This document shows, one piece after another, positions 3,972 through 46,135 of a stretch of 64,000 nucleotides of DNA (position 1 is its first letter; each line of letters starts with the position of its first letter). This DNA comes from Amphiscolops sp. MND2022. Lineage: Eukaryota. The stretch spans positions 8,434,001-8,498,000 of the forward strand of contig OZ076409.1 in assembly GCA_964187785.1 (NCBI GenBank), written 5' to 3'. Position numbers and translations under genes: made by a program. Below the pieces are notes generated by a model. It was not told the origin of the DNA. It saw only the letters and a list, made by a program, of their open reading frames with translations, and did not search any database.

Positions 3972-6127
3972 TGTCGCAGGCTGCCGCCTGCAATGGAACA
4001 ATCATCACAACATCAGCAGACGGACAAAACATCGCACCAGGAACGCTTCCTACATTCTAATGTTAAAACTGAAAATTAACCAATCACAGTGCAGTATAGC
4101 TAGTATTATCTCTCAGCAATACATTATTTGGCCGGTTATGGCCGCTTGCCTTAATCTAACTACTATGCTCGCACACGCTGGTCCAATGGCCGGTTCCGGC
4201 CTATTTAGCTTTCATCAAGTATTATGTGCTATTTAATCAGTAGTGCTGTGTATTTTCTTGGAAAGTACTTGAAACTGTCTTAATACGTCAGATGCAATGA
4301 TTAAAGGTGTTAGGAGAAGAATTGCTAATTGTTTTAATTATAGTTGCTATTGATAAAATCCTGTACCAGAAACGTCACTTGAGCACGCGGCCTTGTCCAA
4401 TCAAATTACTCCATTTGCTACGCAGTTAATACTTCCATTCATTAATGGCCGAATAAGGCTTGTGGACATAACTTCGCTGCTTTTAATAAATATTCAGTCA
4501 AACGGCCGGTTCCGGCCATTTCACATAAAGCGCAATTGTGATGCTAATTGTTCTCACACTTAACCAGGATTCACGTGCTTGTACTCTTAGGCTAAATAAC
4601 CCCTCTAGTGCAGTATTACCTAACTATATCCCAAACTTAGCTCTTTCAGACGGTTAAGGCCGTTTGACCAGTATTTAATATTGATTACTTAGTACGGGGC
4701 AATTAGCCTATTCAGGCCAGATTGTGTAAAGCGCTGTACACATTTTTGATTGATTGGCCGTATATGGCCACTTGACATTATATTAGATTGGTAATGCAGG
4801 ACAAAATGCAAATGGCCGGTTTAGGCCATTTTGCTTATTATCATTAGAGATGCTTTTAAGCATGAATGAGTTTGTTTTACAGTCATGTAAGATTATATTT
4901 ATATACTTGAAGATGTTAATGAGCTTTCTAAATCCAATTAGTGCTATAATAACGACCAGTAGTAGCAATCCGAATACCCGTCACCTGTCCTATTCCGGCC
5001 TTCGCTAATGGCCAGTTTCCAAGTCCAATGGCCGTATCGGGCCATATTACTATATTATGTTCATTTCTATTGCATGAAACTGTGTCTTTGTTTTGTTGAT
5101 TCTACGCACGTGTGTAGGCACGTGTCGCTAAATAGTTTTCATTCCTCTCACTGTAAACAATTTGAAAGTATTAGTTTTGATGTTTGGTCAAAGTGTTGTT
5201 TGCCTAATATAATAAAGCTAAATTCCTCCGCTCCCCTTTGATGATAGTATTTGCAGTTAGAAAATGCATTTGAGTGCATTCCATATTTTATGTAAACTTT
5301 AAATGATGTTGCTGCGAATGAACTAGGTATGAATGTCCTTTGACCCTAACGGGACAAATTCCTAAAGTGCTTTGATGTAGTTGGCGCCGCTAAAAACGGA
5401 TGGATGTTAGTGGTCACCCGCCATAGTCATGTGCCCTTTATGGAATCTGTAAATAGATTGTTATGCAAGGAATTTGAGTGTCACCCTCTCAGGGGTATAT
5501 ATTTTAGTATTTTTCCCAAGAGGGACACAATTGTATTTTGCTTCTCCAAGTTTAGTTTGACATACCTGTTTACGATACAACGTACAAAATCCTAATTTCC
5601 GAACAAGATAATTCACTATTTTCGCTCGGACTTTCTTCAATGCATATTCAAAGAAAGAGGAGAAAGCTTAGACAGGAATCTTGCTAGAAGGCCCGAAAAT
5701 GCCATTAGCAATAACTTTGGAAATGACGATGAAAACATGTACTCAAGTCTACGAGTTGTCAGTACAGGGATAAATGCCGATTACGGCCAGAATTCAGTCG
5801 GGACTAGTTCTAATGCTGAGATTAACAGGTTGTTGAGCGAGTTGAACTCGAGGTTATCTAGAGAAGTAGATGGGATGATGAGTAGTGTCAATGCCCAGAT
5901 CCACAGGGCAATTAGTGATGCAATTGATAGTCAAATATTGCCTCAGATTCAAACTGCCCTATATTCCGGATCGGGCCATTTGACACAAAATAGATGGAAC
6001 GTTCCGTCCGAGAGACCGGAAATCATACCCGAAGAAAACTGCTCTAATAAAACTAGGAAAAACTCAAGAAGTGAGCAATTCCGTGATCGTCCAATTGACG
6101 GAACCACAAATGCTAGTGCTTACGACA
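3972..6127 (+). repeat. Element B 5' LTR
   Basis: Direct repeat of 12031-14186; six substitutions seen by eye (4707, 5055, 5469, 5911, 6026-6027); TG...CA termini with a TGTCG/CGACA inverted repeat. Confidence 0.96.
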
Positions 6128-11321: not shown

Positions 11322-12119
11322 ATGGAAAAGAATATAGCAAGGAGACTCTTCGAAGAGGATGACTTCGACTCTGAGACTACGAGTGATTCTGTGATCTACA
11401 TCTCCACTGATGAGAGCGAAGGGATGTCAGAAGAATGGGACTCGGACTGGTCAACTAACACCTAGGACATGATCAAGAGGATCGAGACAGAGGTGGTGTC
11501 CAGCCCTAAGCTGATAGCTGGGAGAATAGTGACTTCTAACAGTCATGAGGACTTGATTATGATCCCAGGGCCCAGCTCTAGTAGGACAGATGTGGAATCG
11601 ACCCCTAAACTGGGTGAGCAGTATTTTGATAAAACTCTTTGTTACGCCCCCGCCAAAGAATATGCCAAGAAGAGGATCGAACTCTGTAAGACGGTCATAC
11701 CTGTGGATGACTCGCCCATGTCGCCACCTGCCCATGCGAGAGGGCCTGTGTTGGAAACGATGTTGGCCCCGTTGCCACAACCGGCTAATTCTGGGTTCCG
11801 TGTTTCTTAAAATGTGCAAGACACGGTGCCTTACGAGAACGTCAGCAAGAAGATGTACACAAGCTGCATCGTTTGTGGGAGATCAGCTGACGCTATCAAG
11901 AGGGAGAAGGCAGATGACTATATAGGGAGATCAACACCAAGAGGTGAGCCGGCCTACGTCACAGCAATGAGGAAGGAAGCTTATTTGAATGGACTGAATG
12001 CAGGGTCGTTTTCATTTATTCCACCCGCAGTGTCGCAGGCTGCCGCCTGCAATGGAACAATCATCACAACATCAGCAGACGGACAAAACATCGCACCAGG
12101 AACGCTTCCTACATTCTAA
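11322..12119 (+). pseudogene. Element B 3' accessory ORF (ORF3), two in-frame stops, runs into U3
   Basis: Single frame from ATG 11322, broken by TAG 11463 and TAA 11808; shares IYIS-acidic, GEQYFD, SPMSPP, CxxCG and AAAC motifs with A ORF3. Confidence 0.8.
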
Positions 12120-14186
12120 TGTTAAAACTGAAAATTAACCAATCACAGTGCAGTATAGCTAGTATTATCTCTCAGCAATACATTATTTGGCCGGTTATGG
12201 CCGCTTGCCTTAATCTAACTACTATGCTCGCACACGCTGGTCCAATGGCCGGTTCCGGCCTATTTAGCTTTCATCAAGTATTATGTGCTATTTAATCAGT
12301 AGTGCTGTGTATTTTCTTGGAAAGTACTTGAAACTGTCTTAATACGTCAGATGCAATGATTAAAGGTGTTAGGAGAAGAATTGCTAATTGTTTTAATTAT
12401 AGTTGCTATTGATAAAATCCTGTACCAGAAACGTCACTTGAGCACGCGGCCTTGTCCAATCAAATTACTCCATTTGCTACGCAGTTAATACTTCCATTCA
12501 TTAATGGCCGAATAAGGCTTGTGGACATAACTTCGCTGCTTTTAATAAATATTCAGTCAAACGGCCGGTTCCGGCCATTTCACATAAAGCGCAATTGTGA
12601 TGCTAATTGTTCTCACACTTAACCAGGATTCACGTGCTTGTACTCTTAGGCTAAATAACCCCTCTAGTGCAGTATTACCTAACTATATCCCAAACTTAGC
12701 TCTTTCAGACGGTTAAGGCCGTTTGACCAGTATTTAATATTGATTACTTAGTACGGGGCAATTAGTCTATTCAGGCCAGATTGTGTAAAGCGCTGTACAC
12801 ATTTTTGATTGATTGGCCGTATATGGCCACTTGACATTATATTAGATTGGTAATGCAGGACAAAATGCAAATGGCCGGTTTAGGCCATTTTGCTTATTAT
12901 CATTAGAGATGCTTTTAAGCATGAATGAGTTTGTTTTACAGTCATGTAAGATTATATTTATATACTTGAAGATGTTAATGAGCTTTCTAAATCCAATTAG
13001 TGCTATAATAACGACCAGTAGTAGCAATCCGAATACCCGTCACCTGTCCTATTCCGGCCTTCGCTAATGGCCAGTTTCCAAGTCCAATGGCCGTATCGGG
13101 CCATATTACTATACTATGTTCATTTCTATTGCATGAAACTGTGTCTTTGTTTTGTTGATTCTACGCACGTGTGTAGGCACGTGTCGCTAAATAGTTTTCA
13201 TTCCTCTCACTGTAAACAATTTGAAAGTATTAGTTTTGATGTTTGGTCAAAGTGTTGTTTGCCTAATATAATAAAGCTAAATTCCTCCGCTCCCCTTTGA
13301 TGATAGTATTTGCAGTTAGAAAATGCATTTGAGTGCATTCCATATTTTATGTAAACTTTAAATGATGTTGCTGCGAATGAACTAGGTATGAATGTCCTTT
13401 GACCCTAACGGGACAAATTCCTAAAGTGCTTTGATGTAGTTGGCGCCGCTAAAAACGGATGGATGTTAGTGGTCACCCGCCATAGTCATGTGCCCTTTAT
13501 GGAATCTGTAAATAGATTGTTATGCAAAGAATTTGAGTGTCACCCTCTCAGGGGTATATATTTTAGTATTTTTCCCAAGAGGGACACAATTGTATTTTGC
13601 TTCTCCAAGTTTAGTTTGACATACCTGTTTACGATACAACGTACAAAATCCTAATTTCCGAACAAGATAATTCACTATTTTCGCTCGGACTTTCTTCAAT
13701 GCATATTCAAAGAAAGAGGAGAAAGCTTAGACAGGAATCTTGCTAGAAGGCCCGAAAATGCCATTAGCAATAACTTTGGAAATGACGATGAAAACATGTA
13801 CTCAAGTCTACGAGTTGTCAGTACAGGGATAAATGCCGATTACGGCCAGAATTCAGTCGGGACTAGTTCTAATGCTGAGATTAACAGGTTGTTGAGCGAG
13901 TTGAACTCGAGGTTATCTAGAGAAGTAGATGGGATGATGAGTAGTGTCAATGCCCAGATCCACAGGGCATTTAGTGATGCAATTGATAGTCAAATATTGC
14001 CTCAGATTCAAACTGCCCTATATTCCGGATCGGGCCATTTGACACAAAATAGATGGAACGTTCCGTCCGAGAGACCGGAAATCAATCCCGAAGAAAACTG
14101 CTCTAATAAAACTAGGAAAAACTCAAGAAGTGAGCAATTCCGTGATCGTCCAATTGACGGAACCACAAATGCTAGTGCTTACGACA
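12031..14186 (+). repeat. Element B 3' LTR
   Basis: About 99.7% identical to 3972-6127; followed by the ATGGC TSD. Confidence 0.96.
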
Positions 14187-15423: not shown

Positions 15424-18400
15424 TTAAGATTTAGTGGCCTTCTGTCCAGCTTCTTGACCGTCTGTGGTATCCTTCACAGCATTGGAGCCATCAAAAGAAA
15501 CTTTCTTTTTTACTTTCCTAGGAGAAGATTTACGCCGACCACCTGCAGCAGGAGAATTAGAACGCGAACCAGTCTTACTCGAGGAAGCTGACCTCGGCAC
15601 TCGGACCACAGATTCGTAAGCGGCATGGAGAGTCTTATAAAAATCAGCTCGCCCAAAAGTGTCGACGTGGACCCAAGGGTCACCAGCCACATTGCCAGAA
15701 TTGAATTGCTGCTCAACCTCACGATATTTACACAAAGAGACATCGTTAGTGCAAACCGAGATGGCGTCAGGGGCTCGTGCTAGGAAAGACTGAGCAGGAA
15801 GCAACACGTCACCCAATCTACACCGAGGACTCTGTGCGTCAACATCCTGGAAACGAATAGTTGGAAGCAAAGGAGTGTCCTCTGTCAAGCACAAGCAGCA
15901 CAATCGAAATAAACGATACAAATGAGGTCGACTTCGGAGCTCAGTCATATTTGACAACAATTCCAGCATATCAGTAAAACCATCAGGCGAATCTTCCAGG
16001 GTAGCATACTTTTCGCGAAATAAGTCGACAAATTCGAGGTACTCGTCCCGACAGTCGTCTTCCAACGAGGATCCTTCCAACCATCCACGGAGATTGAAGC
16101 TGTTATACAGTGCCCGGTAACAATAGGTCGCCTGGTCTCGAGGCAGACTCAAGAGGATGTGCGGGTCAAAACTGGCCATTCCCTTCACAATCTCAGCATT
16201 GATGCTGTGATGCGCTAGCAGCTTCTCAAGAAGGTAGACGACGTAACCCCTTGCTTTTCCAGCGAACTTCTCCTTGCATTCCTCAACGAGTTTGGGGAAA
16301 TTGGGTATTGGCCCTTCCTTGTCACTGTAGTCCCGCTTGACCTTAGAATTAGCAGCTCCATCTAGATCTTCTTTCAATTTCAAGCGGTGAAGAAAGTCCC
16401 TGGAGGAGAGTTGTCGCAATTCAGCAGTTCGCAGAATGGGAAATTGAGTCCAATCAGTTTCGCTAGGATGGTGCTTGGGGAGCAAAGAGCGATAGCATAG
16501 CTTGCGGGCAAAATTGTTCAACTGCCCAAAGGTGAAGAAACCAGCGTCCCTGTATCCAACTAGACTTCTCTCAAAGCAACGAATATCTAAACAGAGAAAT
16601 GGACCTCTGAGCACAAAGCCTTACCCAGTGAGTCCCTGCAAAGAAACTACGTGAACGATCACGAGTAAATTCCCTCTGAAACAAAAGCAATACTCACAAT
16701 CATAGATGATCTTTCCAAAGAATTCCAACTTGACTAAGAAGAAGTCATCGGTGATGATAGTCCACTCAAGACTCTGCGGCTAAAAGGGAACTCAAGCAAT
16801 TAATGGATAGTGATCCTGGGGTCGTACGTCATGAGGAGAAAACCAAAACAGGTACAAGGAAAATTGAAACCTTATTTTTAACTCCTCGCATTTCGTAGCC
16901 AGGGGCAAGTCTAGTCAGGTGGTCAAGAAGAGGCTGCCAGTTGCTGATCAGTTCAGTACAAATAGTCGGAATGCACCGTATCTTCAAGTCGAAGTTGATT
17001 ATAGCCTAAAAGGAACACTCTGTGCTGTGAGATGCACAAACAATGTGCAAACATGTGAGTCCAGCAATATTAATTCAAACCTTGGTCAGTTCTGGGCAAG
17101 AAGACATCCAAGGCTCATCTAGACTGTTGTTGAGGAAGGCCAGAAGGTACTTCAGCTGTGTGAAGAAGTCAATTCGTCCAAACACGCTCCCTTCAAGCTG
17201 ATGCATTAGCTTGGGAAGAGAAAAGGCATTGAAGCGGAATGGGTACTCGATGCCCTTCTTGAACAGCCCGGAACGCTCAACTGATCGCAACACCTCAGAA
17301 GTACAACCAGATAGACAGGCAATTTGTGGTAGCGTGGAAAGAAAGGACAGTAGGCGTGAAATCATCAGCAACTGACTGGGGCCCGGGTCCGAAGGCAGAG
17401 GGTACTTACACAATTGAACCTTGGCCAGGGTACTCGCCTTCCAGTATCTGATTGAAAGGATGCACTGATTTCCGTGTGGTTCAAACTCCAGAGAGTATGC
17501 GCCGCAGGAATTCACGGACTGGGCTATATCCTCCATTCCGCGCAAAAAGACGTGGTGAAACATGGCCTAGAACAAAACGAAATCACCAAAAATTGGAAAG
17601 GCCAAACTATGGCTCAACGGACTTAGCGGATTAAGGTACACCTTCAAAAATCATACGCTTGGTGGTCCTAACTTGTAGAAAGAATGAAAAGACTTACAGT
17701 GAGCGTGAGCGAACTCCAATCAAGCTGTCGGAAAGAGTCTTGATGATTGGTGAAATTCCCAACCTCGGCCCACAGTCTCTCCAGTATAGTCAAATTGCCG
17801 AAATGTGGGACCGCTCGTCCAATCAAAGAAAGTTGAGTACCCAGTCTCAAATCTTCAGGGCATGCAATTCCCCCAGCACTGGCCATATAGTCGTCGTAAA
17901 AGGGAAATCTAGGGCCAATATCCACTAATGGAGCCGATTCGAAACGTGGCTTCTCCTTCTCTAGTTCTAGAGCGGAAAGGAGATGTCCGTCCTTCCCTCT
18001 AACTGCATGGACGGTCTGTCCACTGATTTTGTCCACCCTACTAAGGTGTTCGTAGCGCCATCGTTGGTCTTTGCGCAGATGGGTCTCACTCTGGTAGTGT
18101 CTCACGATTTCTCTGGCCCCTTTGGAATAGATCGACACGTTCGCCTTGCAAATTTGGCAGTAGAATTTGTGCTTGTTATGCACAGGATCTAGTGGTCCAG
18201 TTACGAAAACTTTGGTCCACTGAATACTTTTGAAATAGGCAGCCTTCATGACTTTGCCAGGTCTGCCTACGTACCTCCGCTTCTTGCGTGGCGGACTGCC
18301 TCCAGGTCGTCGTGGTTGGTCTTCTACCCGTATGGCACTTAGAGGTTGATAGTCCCCCTCACTGTAGCCTGGACTAGGGACTGTGGTATGGCTGGTACTA

Positions 18401-19428
18401 GGAGTCCTGTCCATCTCTTCATCGGAAGTATTTGGGTAGCCAGAACGTTCTCTTGGTAGTGGCGTCCCACAGCGTGGCCTGGCTGCAACAACGAGCTCAT
18501 CATCAGAGGTGAGGGCTCCGCTCGTATAATCATCTGTCATTCCTCCCTCACTTTCTGTATCAGCACCTGAGCTATTGGGACCGCCTCGTGTAGGGACCAC
18601 GCCTCGAACCATTGATTTCCGGAACTATCCAGGAGTTTGTTTTCCTGCCCCATAAACAGCATGTAGGACAAGGGAGCGCATGGCATGGATGGATGATTTC
18701 ACAGTTTCATCCGATATGGTTTTGAGGACGGCATGTATTTGCGGCTCACTGAATGAAACAGTACTGTGACCTTTGGGCAATTCAATTGGGGCAGATGAGG
18801 AAAAGTGTTTCCTTAAAACAGCCTGTCCATTAGCCGAAAATCGTTCTGATAATTTCACCTCTCGGGACCCAGACTTTGCGACTCCAGACGTAGCACCATC
18901 TGTATCTTGTCCGGCAGCACCTTCGGTTGCAGATGGTAATTCGGAACAGGTAACGCTTGAGGTAGGCCGTTTACGTGTTCCTTCCGTACCCATCTCGTCA
19001 AGCAGCTCGCCAGCCTCGCTAGTATCAGTGGCAAAGTACTCCTTGCTCTTGTCTCGTGACTCAATGTAGCTGCCAGTCTCTTTAGAGGCCCCTGGTTGCA
19101 TTCCGTCGAGTGAGAAGGCTTCCTTTCCTAGACGTTCAAAACCTATCGACTGAGAAACCTTTATGGGCCCTGCTGTTCCATCTTCAGGTTGTGCCGGTGC
19201 CGGGAGAAATGAAATATCCAGAGAAGGATTATCACTAGCCAGTGTTCGTAAAGTTTTCTCCGCATATGTGGTTTTGCTCTCTTCAGTGTTTCCACTACTG
19301 GATGACTGGTTGGAGTCAGGACGCGTTATCACTACTGGCTCCTTTGGTGCTGTATTGGTCTCTTCGGCAACCCCAGGATTCTCTGATGTTGGAAGAATTG
19401 TGTTGGTGACTTGTTCTTCAGACGCCAT
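15424..19428 (-). CDS. Antisense spliced accessory gene of element A; BED-type zinc finger, hAT-transposase-like, apparently non-catalytic (about 1198 codons, one internal TAG)
   Basis: Exons 19428-17698, 17566-17081, 17005-16871, 16779-16698 and 16586-15424 join by GT-AG introns (131, 75, 91, 111 nt) with matching phases; finger FYCQIC...GAREIVRHYQSETH. Confidence 0.8.
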
Positions 19429-20638
19429 GTCTAAATAGAAAGAAATGAATTCAAGCGGCAAGCTTCCTGAGTTAAAATCCATTAGCCGCGTTAAAAAATC
19501 TTCCGGAAGTAGATTAAATTGAACACTTGTGAACACTTGTGTTACGTGGACAGGAAGTACTTGAACGAAAAGAGTGCCCTGATCAAGCCTCAAATTAGTT
19601 CAAAAATCTAGCCTAGCTAATGAAAATGTATGAAGAACAACTGACCTGTTAGTATTCCAATGCGGGGGAGTTGGTAAGTGATATTTGTGACAGTAGGTCG
19701 TGCCGAACTGACAGCTAAATGGGGACGTCCAAAGTTGGGACTGGATGTCGATTTTCCGGGAGAAGCTGAGGAAACCCACGGGGATGAGGACGAATGGACA
19801 CTGAGTCCTGTGTTGAAGACGAGTGGAAAATATAAATAAAAATGACTCAAAGACTAAATAATTGGCTAAATATACGTTGAGTAAATACGTTGGTGATTAA
19901 ATACTGGATAATACGAGAAGTGAATAGTACAACTAAATGATAAAGAATTGAAAGAAGAATTGGCGATGTGACAAGATGTCAAGATTGGAGTTCGTGGCTA
20001 TACAGTTTGGTGTCCAATTTATAAGTATTTACAATTTATGGTAATACGTGGATAAAGTCTGCCAGCGATATCTACACTTTCCATTTATTTCGAAAACTTC
20101 GTTATTTTACAAAATTATTTCATTATTTTATGTTATTTTATTTTATTTTATTTTCAAGGTCATTTTATATCATTCCTTATATGGATTCACGACCTTGAGA
20201 GGCCATTTTAACTTGGGAGAAATTTTGCTGCAATCTTATTGGTTGATCATATTGATGAAGGCCGGCGTGGCTGACTGCCATAACTTTACCTCCTTGAGTC
20301 TCTCAAGTACCTGATGAGTGTTAATAAACACTTGAGGTAACTCTCCCAACTTAGAAGTATTAGCCTAGCTGATGATAGTCAATAAAACTGATGTCGGCAA
20401 TTACAAAGTGTCTTGGCGACATGATAAAAGAACTAGAGAAGCGGAATCTGTTATTGAAGAATTACTTGCCGGGAAATGTGAAAACCCGGGAAAGGAGAAA
20501 CGAAGAGACTCGCAGTCGAAGGAAACTGAGATCGCCATAATCTCAATTTCTCTGCTAAAAATCAGTTGATTTCAACAACACCTAAATTCCAATAGGAAAA
20601 TAATCAAAATTGCAAAGAAAATCATCAAAATCCGAGCT

Positions 20639-21452
20639 ATGTCAGACATCTCCGAGACTTTCCCGATGGACTTCATCGGAGCAGCAAGATCAGAAGGGGA
20701 ACCGGCAATCATATACATCTCTAGTGACGAAGAGGAAGGACTCGAATTGTGGGTGGTCTGTGGATGACTTGTACTTGTCGTCCGAAGACGAATCAGACGA
20801 GATTAGGCTCATGGCCAAATGCATTGAGAGACAACTTGCAGAGCCCATATCAATTCCTTCAACCTCAGCCGGTCAGACGCAGAAAAGACCTGTGACGCCC
20901 AGGCCAAATGTGCCACCATTTCCTACCTTTGGGGAGAAGTACTTCGACTTGGCAAAGGGAAATGGGCCTGTAAGTCGGGACAACAGGATCAAATCTAATC
21001 ACCCCATAAATATCTGCCGAAATCTAGTACCGCAAGTGGACACCCCGCTATCTCCGCCTGAACAGGACAGAGGACTTCAATACCTATGTGAACCTCATGA
21101 CGACTCACCATCCCCCATGAACACGTCAATGGAAGCGGTGGCAAGCCATTTCGACGAGATGGTCCTTGCCGAGCCACCCTCCTTAGTCAACTACTCAGAC
21201 TGCGTAGTATGCGGGAAATCAGTCAAACAAATTCAAGAAGAGACCGTCAACGAATACCTGGACAGAACAGTAACTGTAGGAGAGACTTTAGCTGAGACTC
21301 AGGCAAGGAGGAGGGCATTCCTAGATGGCATGAACGCAAACGCTTTTCTACTTATGCCAGGGGGAGTGTCGCGGGCTGCCGCCTGCGACGGCAATTGGTA
21401 CTCAGTCGGATACAACTACAATACTCTCCCTGGTACCCTCCCAATGAACTGA
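20639..21452 (+). CDS. Element A 3' accessory ORF3 (unknown protein; one frameshift near 20738) overlapping the PPT and U3
   Basis: Homologous to B 11322-12119; last about 28 codons lie inside the LTR and are also conserved in solo LTR 44612-46135. Confidence 0.75.
21359..21366 (+). promoter_or_regulatory. Polypurine tract of element A
   Basis: AGGGGGAG directly 5' of the LTR-initial TG. Confidence 0.7.
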
Positions 21453-23115
21453 GGAATGGACTATTAGTCCATAAGTCTAAGAAGACAAACTACAAACTTA
21501 TCTTATTATGATTGATTTCGCATATGTTTATATAAGTATATCATTTTATTCGGGGGTTTTATATTAATGAAATTTGAAATGCTTTGGAATAATTATCCGG
21601 AATTAGCCATGTAAAGTATGTAGTTGAAAGTTGAATATAGTGTATCAATACATGTATAACAGTGATAGATATATACCACGGTTGAGAATTTGGACACCAA
21701 GGCGTACAGGTAAAGGAAACGAGTTCAAATGTTTCCTTTCCTGTCTCGCTAGACGCGCTGTCCGTCCAATTTCTCAACCAATCACAGTGCATTGTTCATT
21801 TAGTCGCTTATTCACTCCTGTGCTGTATTCTAAATTAAAGGACTCAAGGGCCACACGCCACCACAACGACGCTACTTTTGTATTAAATAAAGGCGCGTGG
21901 ACACTGAGTCCAAAGTAGAATAAAAGAAGTGCGTATATTGAAATTGATAATGTACTATCTCAGAAGCGGTATATTTACTCTGATTGGAGATCTGTCACCT
22001 TGATTACAAAAGGACCATTAGTCCTTTCCCCCCCTTTTTTGTGTTCTCTTATTTTCCAGAACTTCCTGGATAGAAAGCCAAAACGAGCTGTTTGTATCTT
22101 AAGAAGCCACAAAGGACAGCTCAATGTTCACACACCATCTTTGCATGTATTTATTTCATATGATTTAGCATGTATTGTTTTACATGAAGTGTTGCTACTG
22201 AAACTCAATTGGATGGCCTGAAGGGGCACATGTACATCTTTGAATGTAACTACTTCATATATGTAGAAGCACGTAAATTAATTACGTCATGGTTGTTGTA
22301 TTTTTAGTATTACGATAATATACTTGTAAAGACACGTTGTATGTTGTGTCTATTTTTAGAATACCTGTTACTAAAATTAGACTGATGACTACCACTATTA
22401 TGCATGTCATGTTTGGTTGATTATAAATAACCGGGACCCGTGGTCCCGGGGACATAATCTTCCTATGACAAGTCACAGTCAGTTCGCTGTTAAAATACCG
22501 AATACAATACTGTTTGCAAGCTTAAAGATTCCAATTCAAATTCTTTCCTCTTGCAACAATCTCTTATGCCTTCTACGAGACGTCAAAAGGCGAAAGCTAG
22601 GAAATCTAGAGAAATGGACATGCTGTCCGACATAGAAAATATGGACGTGATGCTAGGCAATGCGAATAATAACCCCATAGAAAGGGAATTAGTCGATGCC
22701 ATTGAACAATCATCAGTACAAGGAGATATTGAGACGAGTGAATACCTGGAGAATCAGTATACTAATTTTCCTCATGAAAATAATCTTCCTAGACAAGATG
22801 ACATAAGGCAATCCCTTGAGACCTTTTCAAACGAGTTCAACCTTAGACTGGCACAGGAAATGGATTCAATGATGTCTATGGTGCATAGTCAGATAAACAG
22901 GGCGATTAGCAATGCTATCTCTGAGAGAGTCATTCCTGAAATCCAGAACATTGTGAGTTCTATGTCTTCCACAGGAAATAGGGACACTGAGGCTAGTGTT
23001 TCCCCGAATAGCCAGGAAAACAGGGAATGTTCATCCGGGTTTAAATCAAAATTTGCAAAGAAGGACTCACAGTCTGCATGTGATTTAAGAGACATTGCAG
23101 GTCGTAGTCATTACA
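21367..23115 (+). repeat. Element A 3' LTR (about 1.75 kb), containing the gag N-terminal coding region from ATG 22566
   Basis: Starts like the B LTRs (TGTCGCGGGCTGCCGCCTGC); ends TTACA at the point homologous to the end of solo LTR 44612-46135. Confidence 0.88.
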
Positions 23116-35792: not shown

Positions 35793-38700
35793 TGTTAAGA
35801 TCGCTAAATCTAAGTTTAAAACAGGTTAGGTATGGTAGTATCTCTTCAGCTGTATTGTATCTATCTCAAATACATAATGGTAGAGTAATGTATCTTTTTC
35901 ACCATATCAACTAAAAATAAATAGAGCAGTAGCTAAGTCAGTTGTGACAACAACACTGTTGCTCTTTTTGGATTGTGACATTCGTATGTCACATTCCCCC
36001 CTCTTCATGTGGGTTTGTGGTTTGGGGGTTTTGTGGTGTTGATCCCGTATAATACGGTTGACTTCTTCTTTTGTCCGTATATTACGGTCTTCCTCTTCTT
36101 CAATGTTTTGTAGTGGTGTCGTCCGTTTTTGCTGTAACAAATTATGGTATATTTATTTCTTTTACGGTTATTATTGGTTTGGTAGGAGATACCGCCTAGT
36201 TTATCGGTTTGTTTTGCAAATGGTAGTCTTCTAGACCTTCTTACGGGTGTTGTTGGTTTAGTTATTATGTGGTCGTGTTTTATACCTGTCTCCGGCGATA
36301 GTCTCGTTTCTTTCGGGTGGATTTGTAGTTCGTCGTCTACATTCACGCTTATTGGTCTGCCTTCGCTGTTGTTGTAGCAGTTAAATTCGTCATCTGAGAC
36401 GATGCTCAGGTCTAGGCCCGTCATGTTGCCGGTATTCTTTTGTGGGGAAGTAAATTGTCCCTTCTCATTTCTCGGTTGATCTTTCCTGCGGATCCAGTCT
36501 TCACTGTTGTCGTGGTTGTTTGGTTTTGGTGGTTCTTTCCTTCTGTAGACACAAGTTGTTTGTGGCTCAGTTGATTTGGAGCAAGACGGTTGTTCCGCAG
36601 TCGTTTGTCGCGTGATTACCTGTTGTATTGTTCTGAAATGGTAATGGGTTGGATATTAGTTTTCTGTGTATTACTTTTTTTATCGGTGGTAACTGTATGT
36701 TTGGTACCCAAAATAGCTGTTTGTTGTTTGTTACTAAATTTGCTGCCCAGTGAATTCGTTTTGTAGTTCTTTTCGTAAAAAGAGAACGGGTATTTATTCG
36801 TACTGACCGTATTTGGCGGTTTTTTCGTCTGGGAGAAAGTCATCCCCCGTCTGTATTTTGGGTCGGTCGTCTTCTTCTTGGACATCACCAAGTGGTTGGT
36901 GATTTCGCCCGTAGAGCTTCGGGTTATGTACACAGACAAGTCTTTTGAATCGGCTGAAATAGCATTTTTTAAGTTGGTTAGTTTCATTCTGGGTATTCGT
37001 CCAAAATGGAGTTCAAAAGGTGTTTTTTGTAGTTCAGAATGGGTTGTAAATCTAAGCACATGTAGTGTTTTGTCTAAACTATTTCTAAGATCGGTTCCGT
37101 CCTCTAAATTGGCTTTTAGTAGATTCTTCATGGATTGGATGGTTCTCTCAGCCAATCCCGTTCCAGTATGTAAATTTGCTGTACCGTTTTTACGGGTAAT
37201 ATTGTTTTCATTACAATATTTGATAAATTCTTTTGATATGAAGGCGCTTCCTTTGTCTGTTTTAATTGATTTCGGAACGCCGTAAATATTGGTATATTCC
37301 TTTAGGAATGTTATAACGGATTCATGGTTCGTATTTTTGCAAATTTTTGCTACCGGCCATCGGCTATTGCTATCGACGGCGATTAGTATGAAGGGGGAGT
37401 GTTCAAAATGTTTACTATTTAGATTTCCGGTGAAATCCATTTGAATTTCTTCGCCTGGGTTTTCTGGCGGTTCTATTTTTTTTTCGGTACTGGGTGTTTG
37501 ACATTTCAAATTCTTACCGGCGTTCAGGCAGGCAGAGCAGGTTTTTGCTTTTTTCTCAATGTCGGCCCGCATGTTCGGCCACCAGAATATGGCTGCATCG
37601 CCACACATCTTGTTGATTCCGGGATGCCCGAAGTGGAGTGCGTTCAGTGCTGCGTATCTGAGGCTTCTTGGGACGATAATTCTGTCGTCGACCATGGTGA
37701 TTCCCCAGCGGTGCGTTAATCTCTTTATGATTGGTTTGTAGGCTTCTGGGGCCTGGCTGAGGTTGTTGTCTTCGATGCAGCATTGTAGTTCAATCAAGTC
37801 CGGATCTGCGGCGGTTTCTTTGATTAGGGTTTCAAGATCGAGCATGAAGTCTAATTCTGCCGCTCTAACGTTATCTTCTTGCTTTTTGTTTCTTGTGGCT
37901 TTGTTTTCTATTACGCGGTTGATGCGTACGTAGCGTACCGCGATTTCCTCAATTGGCCCGTCTCTAAATTCTTGTACCGGGATAGCCGGGTATGCACCGG
38001 GTTCTTGAGTTATGACAGGTTCTTCAGGGGTAGAGGAAACCGTCGACTCGGTTTCTCTATTGGTTTCCATTGGTGTTTCTGTCGATGTGCCGTGTTCTTG
38101 GTGTTCTTGTGACGATTGGTCGCCAAAGTTTTTGAAATATCCTCCGCCGATATGAGTTATTCGGTGTTCTTCTGTCCGCTTTAGTCGGAGGTCGATTCGT
38201 TTCACTTCTTTTCGTTCTTCTTCGTCCGGTCTTCTCGGTACTAGAATTTGTCTTTCTAGTTTCTTGTTCTAGTGGTGGCGCATGTTCCCGGGTTTTGTTA
38301 GTGCGATCCGTTGTCTCACTAAGTCTTTGGTTTCCGGCGAATTGTCTCTTCTTTTTATGATTTTCATGATTGTATCATCCGCACCCCAGTGGTATTTCAG
38401 TCTCCCCTCTTCGTCTCTGGGGTATCTCTCCGGTTCTTGTGTATCTTCGTTGTTGTTGTTATCCATTGTCTGGTTCTTTTCTAAGTTCAAATGATAATTG
38501 TCTGTCACGGTATGATTAATGTAATTAGCGGTCGTTTGAAAGTTTGAATGATTGTTTGTTTTATTGCAGCGCGTACCAGTCTGAATGCGTCGCGTATCAT
38601 GCATGACTGCCGTGTTGGAGTGATTTGATTGGTTGAAAATTCGGCCGATGCGGTAATTTGCCGTTACAAGTTGCGCGATGGCGTTAATCACGAATTCTTC

Positions 38701-40815
38701 TTCGTAATTTTCTTCCGGTTCCGCTATTTCGGTGGGATTTCTACTGATAAAATCCGTGAATTTGATTTCTTTTCCCGCGGTGTATTTTAATGTGATGTCG
38801 AAATGATTGAGTCTGTCAAGCCACCGGGTTAATCGGGCACTATAATGTTTATTTGATTTATTCTTCTTCAAAAGCGGTTCCAGGGCTTGGTGGTCGGAGA
38901 ATAATTGAACTTGTTTTCCGTATAGGTGAAATCTGAACCGTTCTAATCCCCATACTACCGCCAATAGTTCTAGTTCCCCGACTGAATATTTTTTTTCTGC
39001 GTCGTTAAGGTATCGGCTGGCGAATGCGATTGGTTTTAGGTCTCCACTGCTTTGTTTCTGCCATAATGCTATTCCAAGGCCGGTACCGCAAGCGTCGGTG
39101 GTTACAATATTTTCTTTGTTTCGGTTGTAGTGTGCAAGGCATGGTTGTGAAGTTAGTTCTTTCTTGATTTTGTTGAAATCGGTGTTTCGTTCTTCTGTCC
39201 ACTCCCATTTCGTATTTTTCTTGGGTAATTGTCTCATGTTGTCGGTTTTTTCGGATAGGTTTGGAATGAATATTGCAAAGTATTGGATCGCCCCCAAAAA
39301 GGATTTGAGTGTTTTTGTGTTGGTCGGTGGGTTTAGTTTGTTTATGGCTTCCCGTCTTTTCTTTGTTTGGTCTTATTCCATCCTGGGCAATAGTGTGTCC
39401 CAGCCAGACTGTCTCTTTTAAGTAAAATTTTGACTTTTTCTTGCTCGCCTTGTAGTTTTCGTTTTCGAGTTTTGTGAGTACTGATTCTAATTTTTGGGTG
39501 TGTTTTTCTTTTGTGCCCCGTGTGACCACTATGATATCGTCTAGCCATACGGGTGTTTCGTGTCCGAGCGTACGGTCTATCTTCTCTTGGAATATTGTGG
39601 GTATGTCTGCTGGTCCGTAAAATCCTTTTCGGAAACGGTAATATCCATTGATTTTTTCTCCTGTGATTGCGAAGTTGCAATGTTTGCTTGTTTCGGGCGC
39701 TAATTTCATTTGGCCGTATGCATAGTCCAGGTTTATTACGGATATCCAAATTGGGTCGGTATCGTTTTTTGATAAATCCGCGGATATTTGGTTGAGCAGT
39801 TCATCCATGTTCGGCATGTCTGGTCTTTTCTTTATGCAGCTATCGTTCAGTTTTCTGGCGTCTAATGCGATTTTGACAGATTTGTCTTTCTTTACCGTAA
39901 TTACTACGGGTGATACGAAGCAATCATCTTCGATTGTTTCTAGTCTTTCTAAGTGTCCGGATTCTATTAGTCGGTCCCGTTCGTTTTTTACATCTTCTTG
40001 CAAATGGTAGGGTATCCGTCCTGCTTTTTGTTGTATTGGGTAGCATCCCGGTTTTATTTGTATTTTGACTTCGGCGTCTTTTATCGTGTGGTTGGTGTTG
40101 AAGAGTTTGTGGTATTTTTTGTATACGCTTTCTGATTGGTTGGTTTCGTTGTTCAATGAGATTTTGTTTATTGTTATTGGCAGTTGTTTTAACCAATTTA
40201 CTCCCAGTAGTGGTGTGATATCGTTTCTTTTGGCGATTAGCATCGGTAGTTTGGTTGATACCCCGTTGTATTCCGCGGTTACCCATGTTTTTCCCATGAA
40301 TTTGATTTCGTTTTTGTTTACGTCCTGATATCTTTTTTTCATTGGTTTGATTTCTTTTGTTTTGTGTATTTTCTGGTCTTATGGCATGATGGTGACCGGA
40401 GATCCGGTGTCGATGATAAATTTTTGCTTTTTCCCGTTTATTATCATTTCGACGCCGTAGTGGTCCTTGTTGTCGGGTAGTATTTTGTTTATTGGTGTTA
40501 TTTGGCGGATTTCTTCGGGTTCGCTTTCTTCTTCTTCTGAACTTGTTTCTTCCAGATAGTTGATTCTTCTTTGGTCGTTTCTATCTTGCTGACTGCGCCA
40601 TGTTAAGATCGCTAAATCTAAGTTTAAAACAGGTTAGGTATGGTAGTATCTCTTCAGCTGTATTGTATCTATCTCAAATACATAATGGTAGAGTAATGTA
40701 TCTTTTTCACCATATCAACTAATAATAAATAGAGCAGTAGCTTAGTCAGTTGTTTATGAGTTTGTTTGACAACAACACTGTTGCTCTTTTTGGGTTGTGA
40801 CCTTCGTATGTCACA
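35793..40815 (-). mobile_element. Ty3/Gypsy LTR retrotransposon, element C; short LTRs, gag deleted, degraded pol
   Basis: LTRs 40601-40815 and 35793-35993 (TG...CA, 14-bp indel); TSD AGGGT; PBS TGGCGCAGTC; PPT AAGAGGGGGGAA. Confidence 0.93.
36005..40590 (-). pseudogene. pol: Element C pol (protease, RT, RNase H, integrase) with stops and frameshifts
   Basis: FIIDTGSPVTIMP* near 40400; ALDARKLN/WLDD RT; TTDAC...ELELLAVVW...FSDHQAL RNase H; HFGHPG...CSAC and QMDF/KTDKG/LAERT integrase. Confidence 0.92.
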
Positions 40816-44611: not shown

Positions 44612-46135
44612 TGTAAGGACTATGATCCTTGTTGTTTCTAAGATCACAGGCAGACCGCGAGTCCTTTTTTGTAATTTTAGATTTGAACCCATTGTTCCTT
44701 CCAGTGTTCTCCTGACTATCAGGGGACAAACTGGCCTCAGTGTCCCGATTCCCTGAAGATGACATTGAACTAACATAATTCTGAATCTCTGGAATCTTCA
44801 TCTCAGCTATTGCTGTACTGATTGCTCTATTTATTTGTCTATGCATCATAGACATCATTGAGTCCATCTCTTGAGAGAGTCTCATGTTAAATTCGCTTAT
44901 GAAAGTTTCCATCGTCTCTTGAAAGCTATCCTGTCTAGGGATCATGTTTTCATGGACGTAGTGTCCAAGGTCATTTTCGTCAGAATCATTCTCTCTAGAT
45001 TGCAAGTTAGACTCATTGTCACAGTGACTTCCTGAATTCTCAATTACATTTGAAAGCTCTCGGTCAATTGGATTGACATTGTCATTCCCGAGTATAACGT
45101 ACTTATTTTCAAAATCGGACATCATGACCATCTCTCTCGACTTTCTAGCTTTTGCTTTTTGTCGTCTTGTGGAAGGCATAAGAGACTATTGCAAGAGGTA
45201 AGAATTAAATTTATTTAGGCTTGCAAATCAAATTTTGTAACAAAGAATATTAAACAAACTGCAACAAACTTGTTTCATCAAAATAAATTTTTGTCCCCAA
45301 GACGACGTGTCCCGGTTATTTATAATGAACGTTGCATGACTCGCAAAATATTTCCAATCATGTGTCTAAAAATATATTATATCAGCGCTAAAAATAGCTC
45401 CGTCGTCATGTCTTCAAAGGCAATATTTACCGAAAATGACGGGTAAGGCGCCAAACTGCAAGGCTTAAATATAACCTCATAGGACAAGCAGCATTACATG
45501 CATTATATTTTACATGAAGTATATACGTATCCATGCGTTTGTATACATTGGAAAATAGAGGGGGATAGCATGTCCATTTACACATATGAACATATGCTCA
45601 TCATCAATTCGCTTTATTTACAAAGTTGGACTCAGTGTCCATTTGCCAATCTTTGCCAAGCATACTACAGTTGTATAGGTGCGTGGCCGTGCTCGGCCTT
45701 TAAATAAACAAGCACATCTGTAGCAAATGAGCGCATCTGACTGGTCAATAAACTAATTGGACCGGCTATCCAAGGCGACAGGCAAAGAAACATTTGAACA
45801 CGTTTCCTTTGCCTGTACGCCTTGGTGTCCAATTACTAATAAATCACTGTTATTTTACATGTATAAATATAGTATAGCAACGTTGTATCAATTTAATTTC
45901 CTCAATTTGAACCAAATGAGAACTAGTTTGATCTCAGGTCCCATTATTAATTGCTTACTAGGGAACGGTACAAAATATTAACATTCGATAAAAAATGAGT
46001 TTAACAGTTCCATTACAGTTCCTTTTGGACGGCATGTCCATTTTCCTCAGTGAAGCGGGATTGTCCCAGGGAGAGTGTTGTAGTGGTTATAAGAGATTGA
46101 ATACCAGTTCCCATCGCATGCGGCAGTCTGCGACA
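44612..46135 (-). mobile_element. Solo LTR of the element A family (1524 bp)
   Basis: TGTCGCAGACTGCCGC...CCTTACA on the minus strand; exact TSD AATTT (44607-44611 and 46136-46140); encodes the ORF3 tail and the gag N-terminus MPSTRRQKAKARKSRE (ATG 45179). Confidence 0.93.

Follow-up and report, generated by a model that had tools for sequence, protein, structure and literature searches.

ORF3, a third open reading frame carried by a large clade of gypsy-type LTR retrotransposons in an animal genome of 1.07 Gb, was confirmed by sequence comparison as a real accessory gene of that clade. The reading that we favour, tentatively and with somewhat less than even confidence, is that its product, expressed separately, may act in trans as a nuclear regulator, a disordered phospho-adaptor combining a motif that resembles a SUMO-interacting motif (SIM) and a small metal-binding module, by analogy with Tas of foamy viruses. 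The promoter, start codon, location and function proposed below for ORF3 were all deduced from sequence. The window that was analysed is a stretch of 64,000 nucleotides of contig OZ076409.1 from Amphiscolops sp. MND2022. It holds most of element A, a gypsy-type LTR element of ~14.1 kb whose 5' LTR lies before the window, a second element B nested in A, and a solo LTR, with the following features:

3972..6127, plus strand: 5' LTR of element B; B lies nested within the integrase of A.
11322..12119, plus strand: ORF3 of nested element B from ATG 11322, with stops at 11463-11465 and 11808-11810.
12031..14186, plus strand: 3' LTR of element B, 99.7% identical to the B 5' LTR.
15424..19599, minus strand: antisense ORFs of element A, in head-to-head orientation to ORF3.
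20639..21452, plus strand: ORF3 of element A from its first ATG, with one frameshift at ~20740-20746 and a stop ending at 21452; 272 aa in intact siblings.
21357..21366, plus strand: polypurine tract (PPT) of element A, read as P-G-G in ORF3.
21367..23115, plus strand: 3' LTR of element A, with TATA box at 22422 and gag start at 22566; carries the last 28 codons of ORF3.
~44612..46135, minus strand: solo LTR of a related family, bearing an ORF3 tail and a gag head and flanked by a 5-bp duplication.

Both window copies of ORF3 are broken, at the places where an earlier note on this DNA, made from the letters alone, had put them. All motifs that it quoted for A and B were found, and the homology that it claimed between the two proteins was borne out, intact relatives of both clades being 30% identical over 258 aa (E 8e-30). 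The end of ORF3 does lie in U3, and the solo LTR with the ORF3 tail is genuine. Read-through of the PPT, also claimed, held for the non-B families, which have a purine tract before the LTR, but not for nine B-clade families, which have a C-rich stretch there. This stretch, with no purine tract, was seen just before the 3' LTR in 9/9 B-clade families (window 12021-12030; L081-L090, L205, L206, L211), some of which still have LTR pairs >99.8% alike.

The host element shows LTR ends of the form TG...CA, a target duplication (5 bp for A), a PBS and the order gag, then PR-RT-RH-IN, as expected of Ty3/gypsy elements; the LTR pair of A is 99.2% identical and the LTR promoter is of TATA type. About 185 gag codons lie inside the LTR (window 22566-23115). 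Because gag start and ORF3 end both fall within the LTR, solo LTRs bear both an ORF3 tail and a gag head, and a placement of ORF3 upstream of gag was rejected since gag starts inside the LTR. The gag head was found to be swapped separately from ORF3 and U3 (74% vs 96-98%). MEF2-type sites (consensus YTAWWWWTAR) numbered 2-6 per U3 in 13/15 U3 regions, against ~0.4 in shuffles (window 22350-22380), with only 0-1 in B-clade U3; they may point to muscle-linked expression. Also observed were tandem elements with a common LTR and a period of ~14.1 kb (L034-L037, G000:C3:67.63-67.66 Mb; like spacings occur in the search results), one element whose 5' end carries an inverted piece of the antisense gene fused to a truncated ORF3 (L031:902-3264), a separate gypsy-type element with 153-nt direct repeats and matches to RT and integrase at 35793-40753 on the minus strand of the window, and large tandem histone arrays with a period of ~3.63 kb (L255-L284).

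ORF3 was collected at 240 loci, which gave 153 open frames, 134 of them distinct, in 33 families at 90% identity. The frames were picked for being open and the figures describe active lineages; the families are mutually related and family counts are not independent. In long stretches of sequence, the order gag, pol, antisense ORFs, ORF3, LTR was complete at 21/23 places (one lacked pol, one was rearranged), and homologs of the antisense ORFs lay directly upstream of ORF3, head to head, at 23/23. ORF3 is an additional sense ORF (aORF-3S) in that it lies between pol and the 3' LTR and is kept under selection. RT is 87-100% identical across elements (the broken pieces of one copy excepted) and 87-91% identical between clades, where ORF3 is only ~30% identical.

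The dN/dS check proposed in the earlier note found purifying selection. Five of five disjoint pairs had pN/pS of 0.15-0.23 (Fisher p <1e-20), with 0 stops in the ORF3 frame against 11-25 in the five other frames of the same pairs. Among 24 young copies pN/pS was 0.148, and distance-corrected dN/dS was 0.05-0.17 in measurable pairs of >60% identity. By segment, the lowest pN/pS values were those of the SIM-like stretch (0.07) and a CxxC-helix module (0.10); the linkers had the highest (0.31-0.36). It would be scarcely credible that the frame has no protein function and owes its conservation to DNA constraints at the PPT and LTR end plus recent copying. Silent sites are indeed conserved around the LTR junction (pS 0.25-0.27 vs ~0.65 in the ORF3 body), ORF3 is broken in both window copies, and the spread of subfamily B took place without it; every segment upstream of the PPT nevertheless has pN/pS of 0.07-0.36, with silent sites near saturation. 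That reading is refuted for the body of ORF3 and holds only for residues 237-254. The AAAC tail (V-S-Q/R-A-A-A-C) singled out earlier is conserved as stated, but it is a weak sign of protein function: the underlying LTR end is near-invariant even at silent sites, and the low pS makes the tail partly a DNA constraint.

A profile search of 1.84 billion representatives returned 557 proteins at E 0.001, the best 150 of the 557 all being of 283 aa or less. Six full-length divergent members, on contigs of <4 kb, were 36-46% identical to the nearest of the copies collected here, so the ORF3 family likely spans other species too.

Upstream of the first ATG of element A, three features were predicted:

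20535..20541, plus strand: initiator-like (Inr) element, with predicted +1 at 20537, from the Inr+DPE match in the window.
20564..20568, plus strand: DPE-like element, +28 to +32.
20609..20638, plus strand: predicted ATT start and basic 10-codon extension, beginning I/M-A-K-K.

The motif YCATW followed by RGWY at exactly +28 was present in 23/32 families, and RGWY at each other offset from +18 to +39 was present in at most two; the region further upstream gave 0. In 1000 shuffles the pair was found on average in 0.37 families and never in more than 3. The Inr pattern was picked after the alignment had been viewed, whereas the DPE pattern and offset came from the literature, Inr+DPE promoters being described in PMC1538597 as having an RGWYV consensus at a strict +28 spacing from the initiator A. 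The exact pair is absent in 9/32 families, in some by a C at +30. Four of the 23 families with the pair have GG at +28, which excludes a splice acceptor in those four. The predicted promoter has no TATA box, and ORF3 is likely, on this sequence pattern, to have a TATA-less Inr+DPE promoter of its own. A minus-strand ATG 47-74 nt upstream was considered as the start of the antisense gene and rejected: its peptides are not conserved and the initiator explains the ATG better.

ATG 20639 had been taken as the start of ORF3 in the earlier note, which missed the likely internal promoter and non-AUG start. The ATG was confirmed, but coding constraint was found already from ATT 20609, 10 codons upstream. 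I-A-K-K or a near variant lies in frame upstream of the first ATG in 32/33 families, 6-13 codons before it in 29. The conserved Ile codon is ATT in 19, ATA in 12 and ATC in 1 of 32 families, never ATG, Val or Leu, and hydrophobic positions near it vary freely. In 28/28 families tabulated it is flanked by a purine at -3 and by G at +4, a context described as favouring non-AUG starts (PMC5666671), and AAG is avoided in the codon before it (2:24 vs 20:42, p 0.016). The extension has pN/pS of 0.28, against 1.03 for the leader (14 pairs; leader ungapped, same frame). An in-frame stop lies within 15 codons upstream of the Ile codon in 15/32 families, in six of these with no intervening AG, and the last 60 nt before the start hold 1 ATG where 19.6 were expected. 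That sole AUG among the 32 families belongs to L102, two codons before the conserved ATT. Exceptions among the 134 distinct copies were nine in which the start was unlocated by pattern, two with a stop between motif and ORF and one at TTG. We infer that ORF3 starts at a non-AUG (AUU/AUA) codon. The downstream ATG is retained in 29/32 families, so that long and short isoforms are likely. Host start contexts were collected from seven genes only, too few for a host consensus.

Two other sources of the extension were rejected. A splice acceptor would have no common phase, and of the 11 families in which a stop occurs 10 or fewer codons upstream, six lack any AG after it; a spliced leader donating an AUG is made less likely by the leader reported for S. 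roscoffensis, which has no ATG (PMC9911081). A non-AUG start kept across families only ~30% alike is notable in its own right. B-clade N-termini (e.g. L084:998-1040) have, after the AUG, a second basic head of N-L-A-K-R-L-F type, which we take to resemble a cyclin-binding RxL motif.

The encoded protein is acidic (net charge -11 to -22), and the following parts of it recur below:

20708..20737, plus strand: SIM-like motif with CK2-type serines, IIYISSDEEE.
21015..21059, plus strand: Cys128 to a P-x-S-P-P motif; C128 in 40/41 rows, P138 in 40/41, S140 in 41/41, P141 in 40/41 and P142 in 39/41.
21192..21341, plus strand: CxxC (21201-21212) and two helices, the sole confidently folded part.

A phospho-SIM consists of a hydrophobic core psi-psi-x-psi followed by Ser and acidic residues. 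By pattern, this core directly precedes S-S-acidic in 24/32 families; in L201 a SIM-like core at a shifted place was missed by the pattern. The SIM-like motif noted earlier thus lies in a strongly conserved stretch, but its hydrophobic core is altered in seven families, the K clade, which have S/T-Y/F-L/Q at the core position and keep only S-S-acidic in place; an alternative core, L-V-S-L, is possible three residues earlier in their sequences. S28 and S29 are kept in 40/41 rows, and the core also recurs in seven divergent database proteins. Such a motif arose by chance in 89/20000 shuffles. A psi-K-x-E SUMO attachment site was found in only 13/33 families, and the P-x-S-P-P motif is presumably a proline-directed kinase-type site. 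The host encodes SUMO, the named relatives coming from convolutid acoels (80-83% identity), which makes an acoel host likely. A modelled complex of host SUMO with ORF3 residues 12-56 scored 0.05 against a mark of 0.34 with controls not folded, and speaks neither for nor against binding.

These features could also belong to a cytoplasmic or particle-associated accessory protein that acts, in the manner of Nef, Vpr or Bet, against a host restriction or small-RNA pathway. Its basic head would direct it to a membrane or organelle; its acidic serine motif would be a kinase or docking site unrelated to SUMO. It is S-S-acidic and not the hydrophobic core that stays in place when rows of the K clade are included, ORF3 has diverged to ~30% identity where RT remains at 87-91%, as in host-conflict proteins, and action in trans would fit equally well. 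Retention of the core in most families and in the divergent proteins argues against this, as do the absence of a hydrophobic anchor and selection that is purifying, not diversifying, between related families; we rate it as somewhat unlikely.

In two AlphaFold models most of ORF3 was of low confidence (mean pLDDT 53 and 65). The second had 34 residues at pLDDT of at least 90, the CxxC and two helices forming a folded module. The 'Cys cluster' of the earlier note is this one CxxC; the other residues, C128, H172 and C251, are dispersed. C190, C193 and C251 are invariant in 41 diverse rows, C128 is present in 40 and H172 in 38, and the CxxC could possibly form a zinc site with H172 and C128 or C251. 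Profile searches and structure prediction, suggested earlier as a check, thus yielded one confidently folded module, but no family or fold match. Pfam gave nothing above cut-off for the window pieces or 83 members; the only recurring match, the Spin-doc zinc finger (PF18658; 20/83 members, ~12 bits vs a 27.3 cut-off), was set aside. In follow-up it scored 11.5-13.4 bits in 7/11 proteins, mostly limited to the CxxC stretch, and a search of the genome for the Spin-doc family found no match, its controls being likewise unmatched. A PDB sequence profile gave 0 matches at E 10. In the ESM Atlas the whole protein had no usable match and the C-terminal part matched only hypothetical clusters with low shared-feature counts. 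Fold searches gave generic helix-hairpin rows only for the whole model (best Z 5.2, rmsd 3.1, 45 aligned) and, for the C-terminal model in viral and PDB libraries, nothing at E <0.001, with only one row at or above Z 2 (Z 2.2) on a second look. A likeness to RPB10 / RNA polymerase subunit N was dropped (weak Foldseek rows, E 1.7-8.8; 0.6 bits vs host RPB10 exon 1). The Pfam and fold searches found no convincing DNA-binding domain.

An env-like or other structural protein made from spliced RNA would suit a sense-strand ORF with conserved cysteines between pol and the 3' LTR. The earlier note had argued that ORF3 is not env, and a 19-residue hydropathy scan of 15 copies agreed, with maxima of 0.84-1.42 and no env-like signal or transmembrane segment; Pfam and PDB sequence searches gave no match. 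Upstream of the conserved head, no splice acceptor occurs in a common phase either, though splicing of a non-coding leader would still fit. The env-like reading is largely refuted and now very improbable.

Action in trans is suggested by the history of subfamily B. Among 30 loci near element B, 28 cover the site of the first ORF3 stop, which is common to 25 of them; 13 have both stops. Together with recent insertion (the near-identical B LTRs), this indicates that subfamily B spread after the loss of ORF3, which was therefore dispensable in cis for this subfamily. The pattern suggests that ORF3 may act in trans, as a diffusible factor supplied by intact relatives.

The constant head-to-head neighbour of ORF3 raises a different arrangement, a two-gene module in which the antisense protein, bound to element DNA, is a docking platform from which ORF3 alters chromatin or the integration site. 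The presence of the antisense ORFs at all 23 places speaks for it, but the two genes have been exchanged independently: one pair of elements shares 99-100% of the antisense gene and 65% of ORF3, another 97% of ORF3 and ~60% of the antisense gene, and among 11 close elements ORF3 and antisense-gene distances were uncorrelated (Mantel r 0.13 and -0.18). We consider such a module quite unlikely. ORF3 tends to travel with U3 and not with the antisense gene: its distance correlated with that of U3 (r 0.70), barely more than with that of RT (0.66), in 11 elements with close RT. Physical overlap explains the link to U3 without co-evolution, and family G breaks it.

Under the favoured reading of ORF3 as a nuclear regulator, the Inr+DPE promoter would give a short-leader ORF3 RNA apart from the TATA-type LTR promoter, a step with good sequence support. 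Weak initiation at AUU/AUA would add a basic head of 6-13 residues, and ribosomes that scanned past that codon would begin at the AUG, so that two isoforms arise. More weakly, we infer that the protein, acidic and largely disordered, may serve as a phospho-regulated adaptor that binds SUMO-modified chromatin factors through its SIM-like motif and a partner through its CxxC-helix module. Docked in this way, ORF3 could raise LTR output or blunt silencing, along the lines of foamy virus Tas or of herpesviral IE2. A counter-silencing or transactivating factor had been proposed in the earlier note as well; that role and the SUMO partner are still hypotheses. A bolder version, which we regard as unlikely, is that an env-less gypsy clade independently built a complex-retrovirus-style circuit, with an early Inr+DPE gene, a dose-limiting AUU/AUA start and a hijack of SUMO that lifts LTR silencing in trans and mobilises relatives lacking ORF3.

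ORF3 is in any case a mapped gene open to testing, for which a promoter and start codon are predicted and which has short motifs and a natural loss subfamily. Were the regulator reading true, it would be an animal retrotransposon-encoded, SUMO-engaging counter-silencing or activating factor, of which none was found in the literature searched, and could help to account for LTR elements making up about half of acoel genomes (PMC9911081). That literature, with few subscription papers and no supplements, held no description of the ORF3 protein family or of an Inr+DPE promoter, AUU/AUA start and U3 overlap combined.

Extra ORFs at this position were already known (PMC7264820, PMC5408684), as was an internal promoter for a third ORF (PMC4402516), and what extra ORFs do in LTR retrotransposons is described as an open question (PMC7264820). 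Plant gypsy elements have a sense, env-like aORF-3S between pol and the 3' LTR and an antisense aORF-3R (PMC7264820), and rotifer LTR elements have several ORF3 types (PMC5408684); the present ORF3 resembles these as an extra ORF at the same position, conserved family-wide. Maize Grande gene23, in the same comparison (PMC7264820, PMC5408684), has its own promoter and a nuclear product. Spliced RNA is the usual source of the known sense ORF products, which are mostly membrane proteins or enzymes (GDSL, DEDDy; PMC7264820, PMC5408684), whereas the present product is acidic and mostly disordered and its gene runs into U3, paired head to head with an antisense gene. The env of Oikopleura Tor3b/4b, likewise the third ORF of an invertebrate LTR element, has an internal promoter, as predicted for ORF3, but Tor Env is a transmembrane glycoprotein (PMC4402516) and ORF3 has no membrane segment. 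At the level of motifs, the SIM of HCMV IE2 is regulated by CK2, phosphorylation raising SUMO affinity ~8-fold and also transactivation (10.1101/655282), and phospho-SIM proteins also include PML, Daxx and PIAS1 (PMC4276917). ORF3 shares with them a hydrophobic core of four residues with CK2-type serines and acidic residues behind it, a likeness of motif and not of homology, with the core altered in one ORF3 clade. Foamy viruses carry accessory ORFs, tas/bel2, before the 3' LTR; an internal promoter drives them, and Tas activates this promoter and then U3 (PMC3798896). The searches run gave no significant family or fold match that would make ORF3 a homolog of Tas, and ORF3 differs in sitting in an env-less gypsy retrotransposon with a predicted Inr+DPE promoter and non-AUG start and a putative transactivation; it is like tas/bel2 in lying between the main genes and the 3' LTR, behind a predicted internal promoter.
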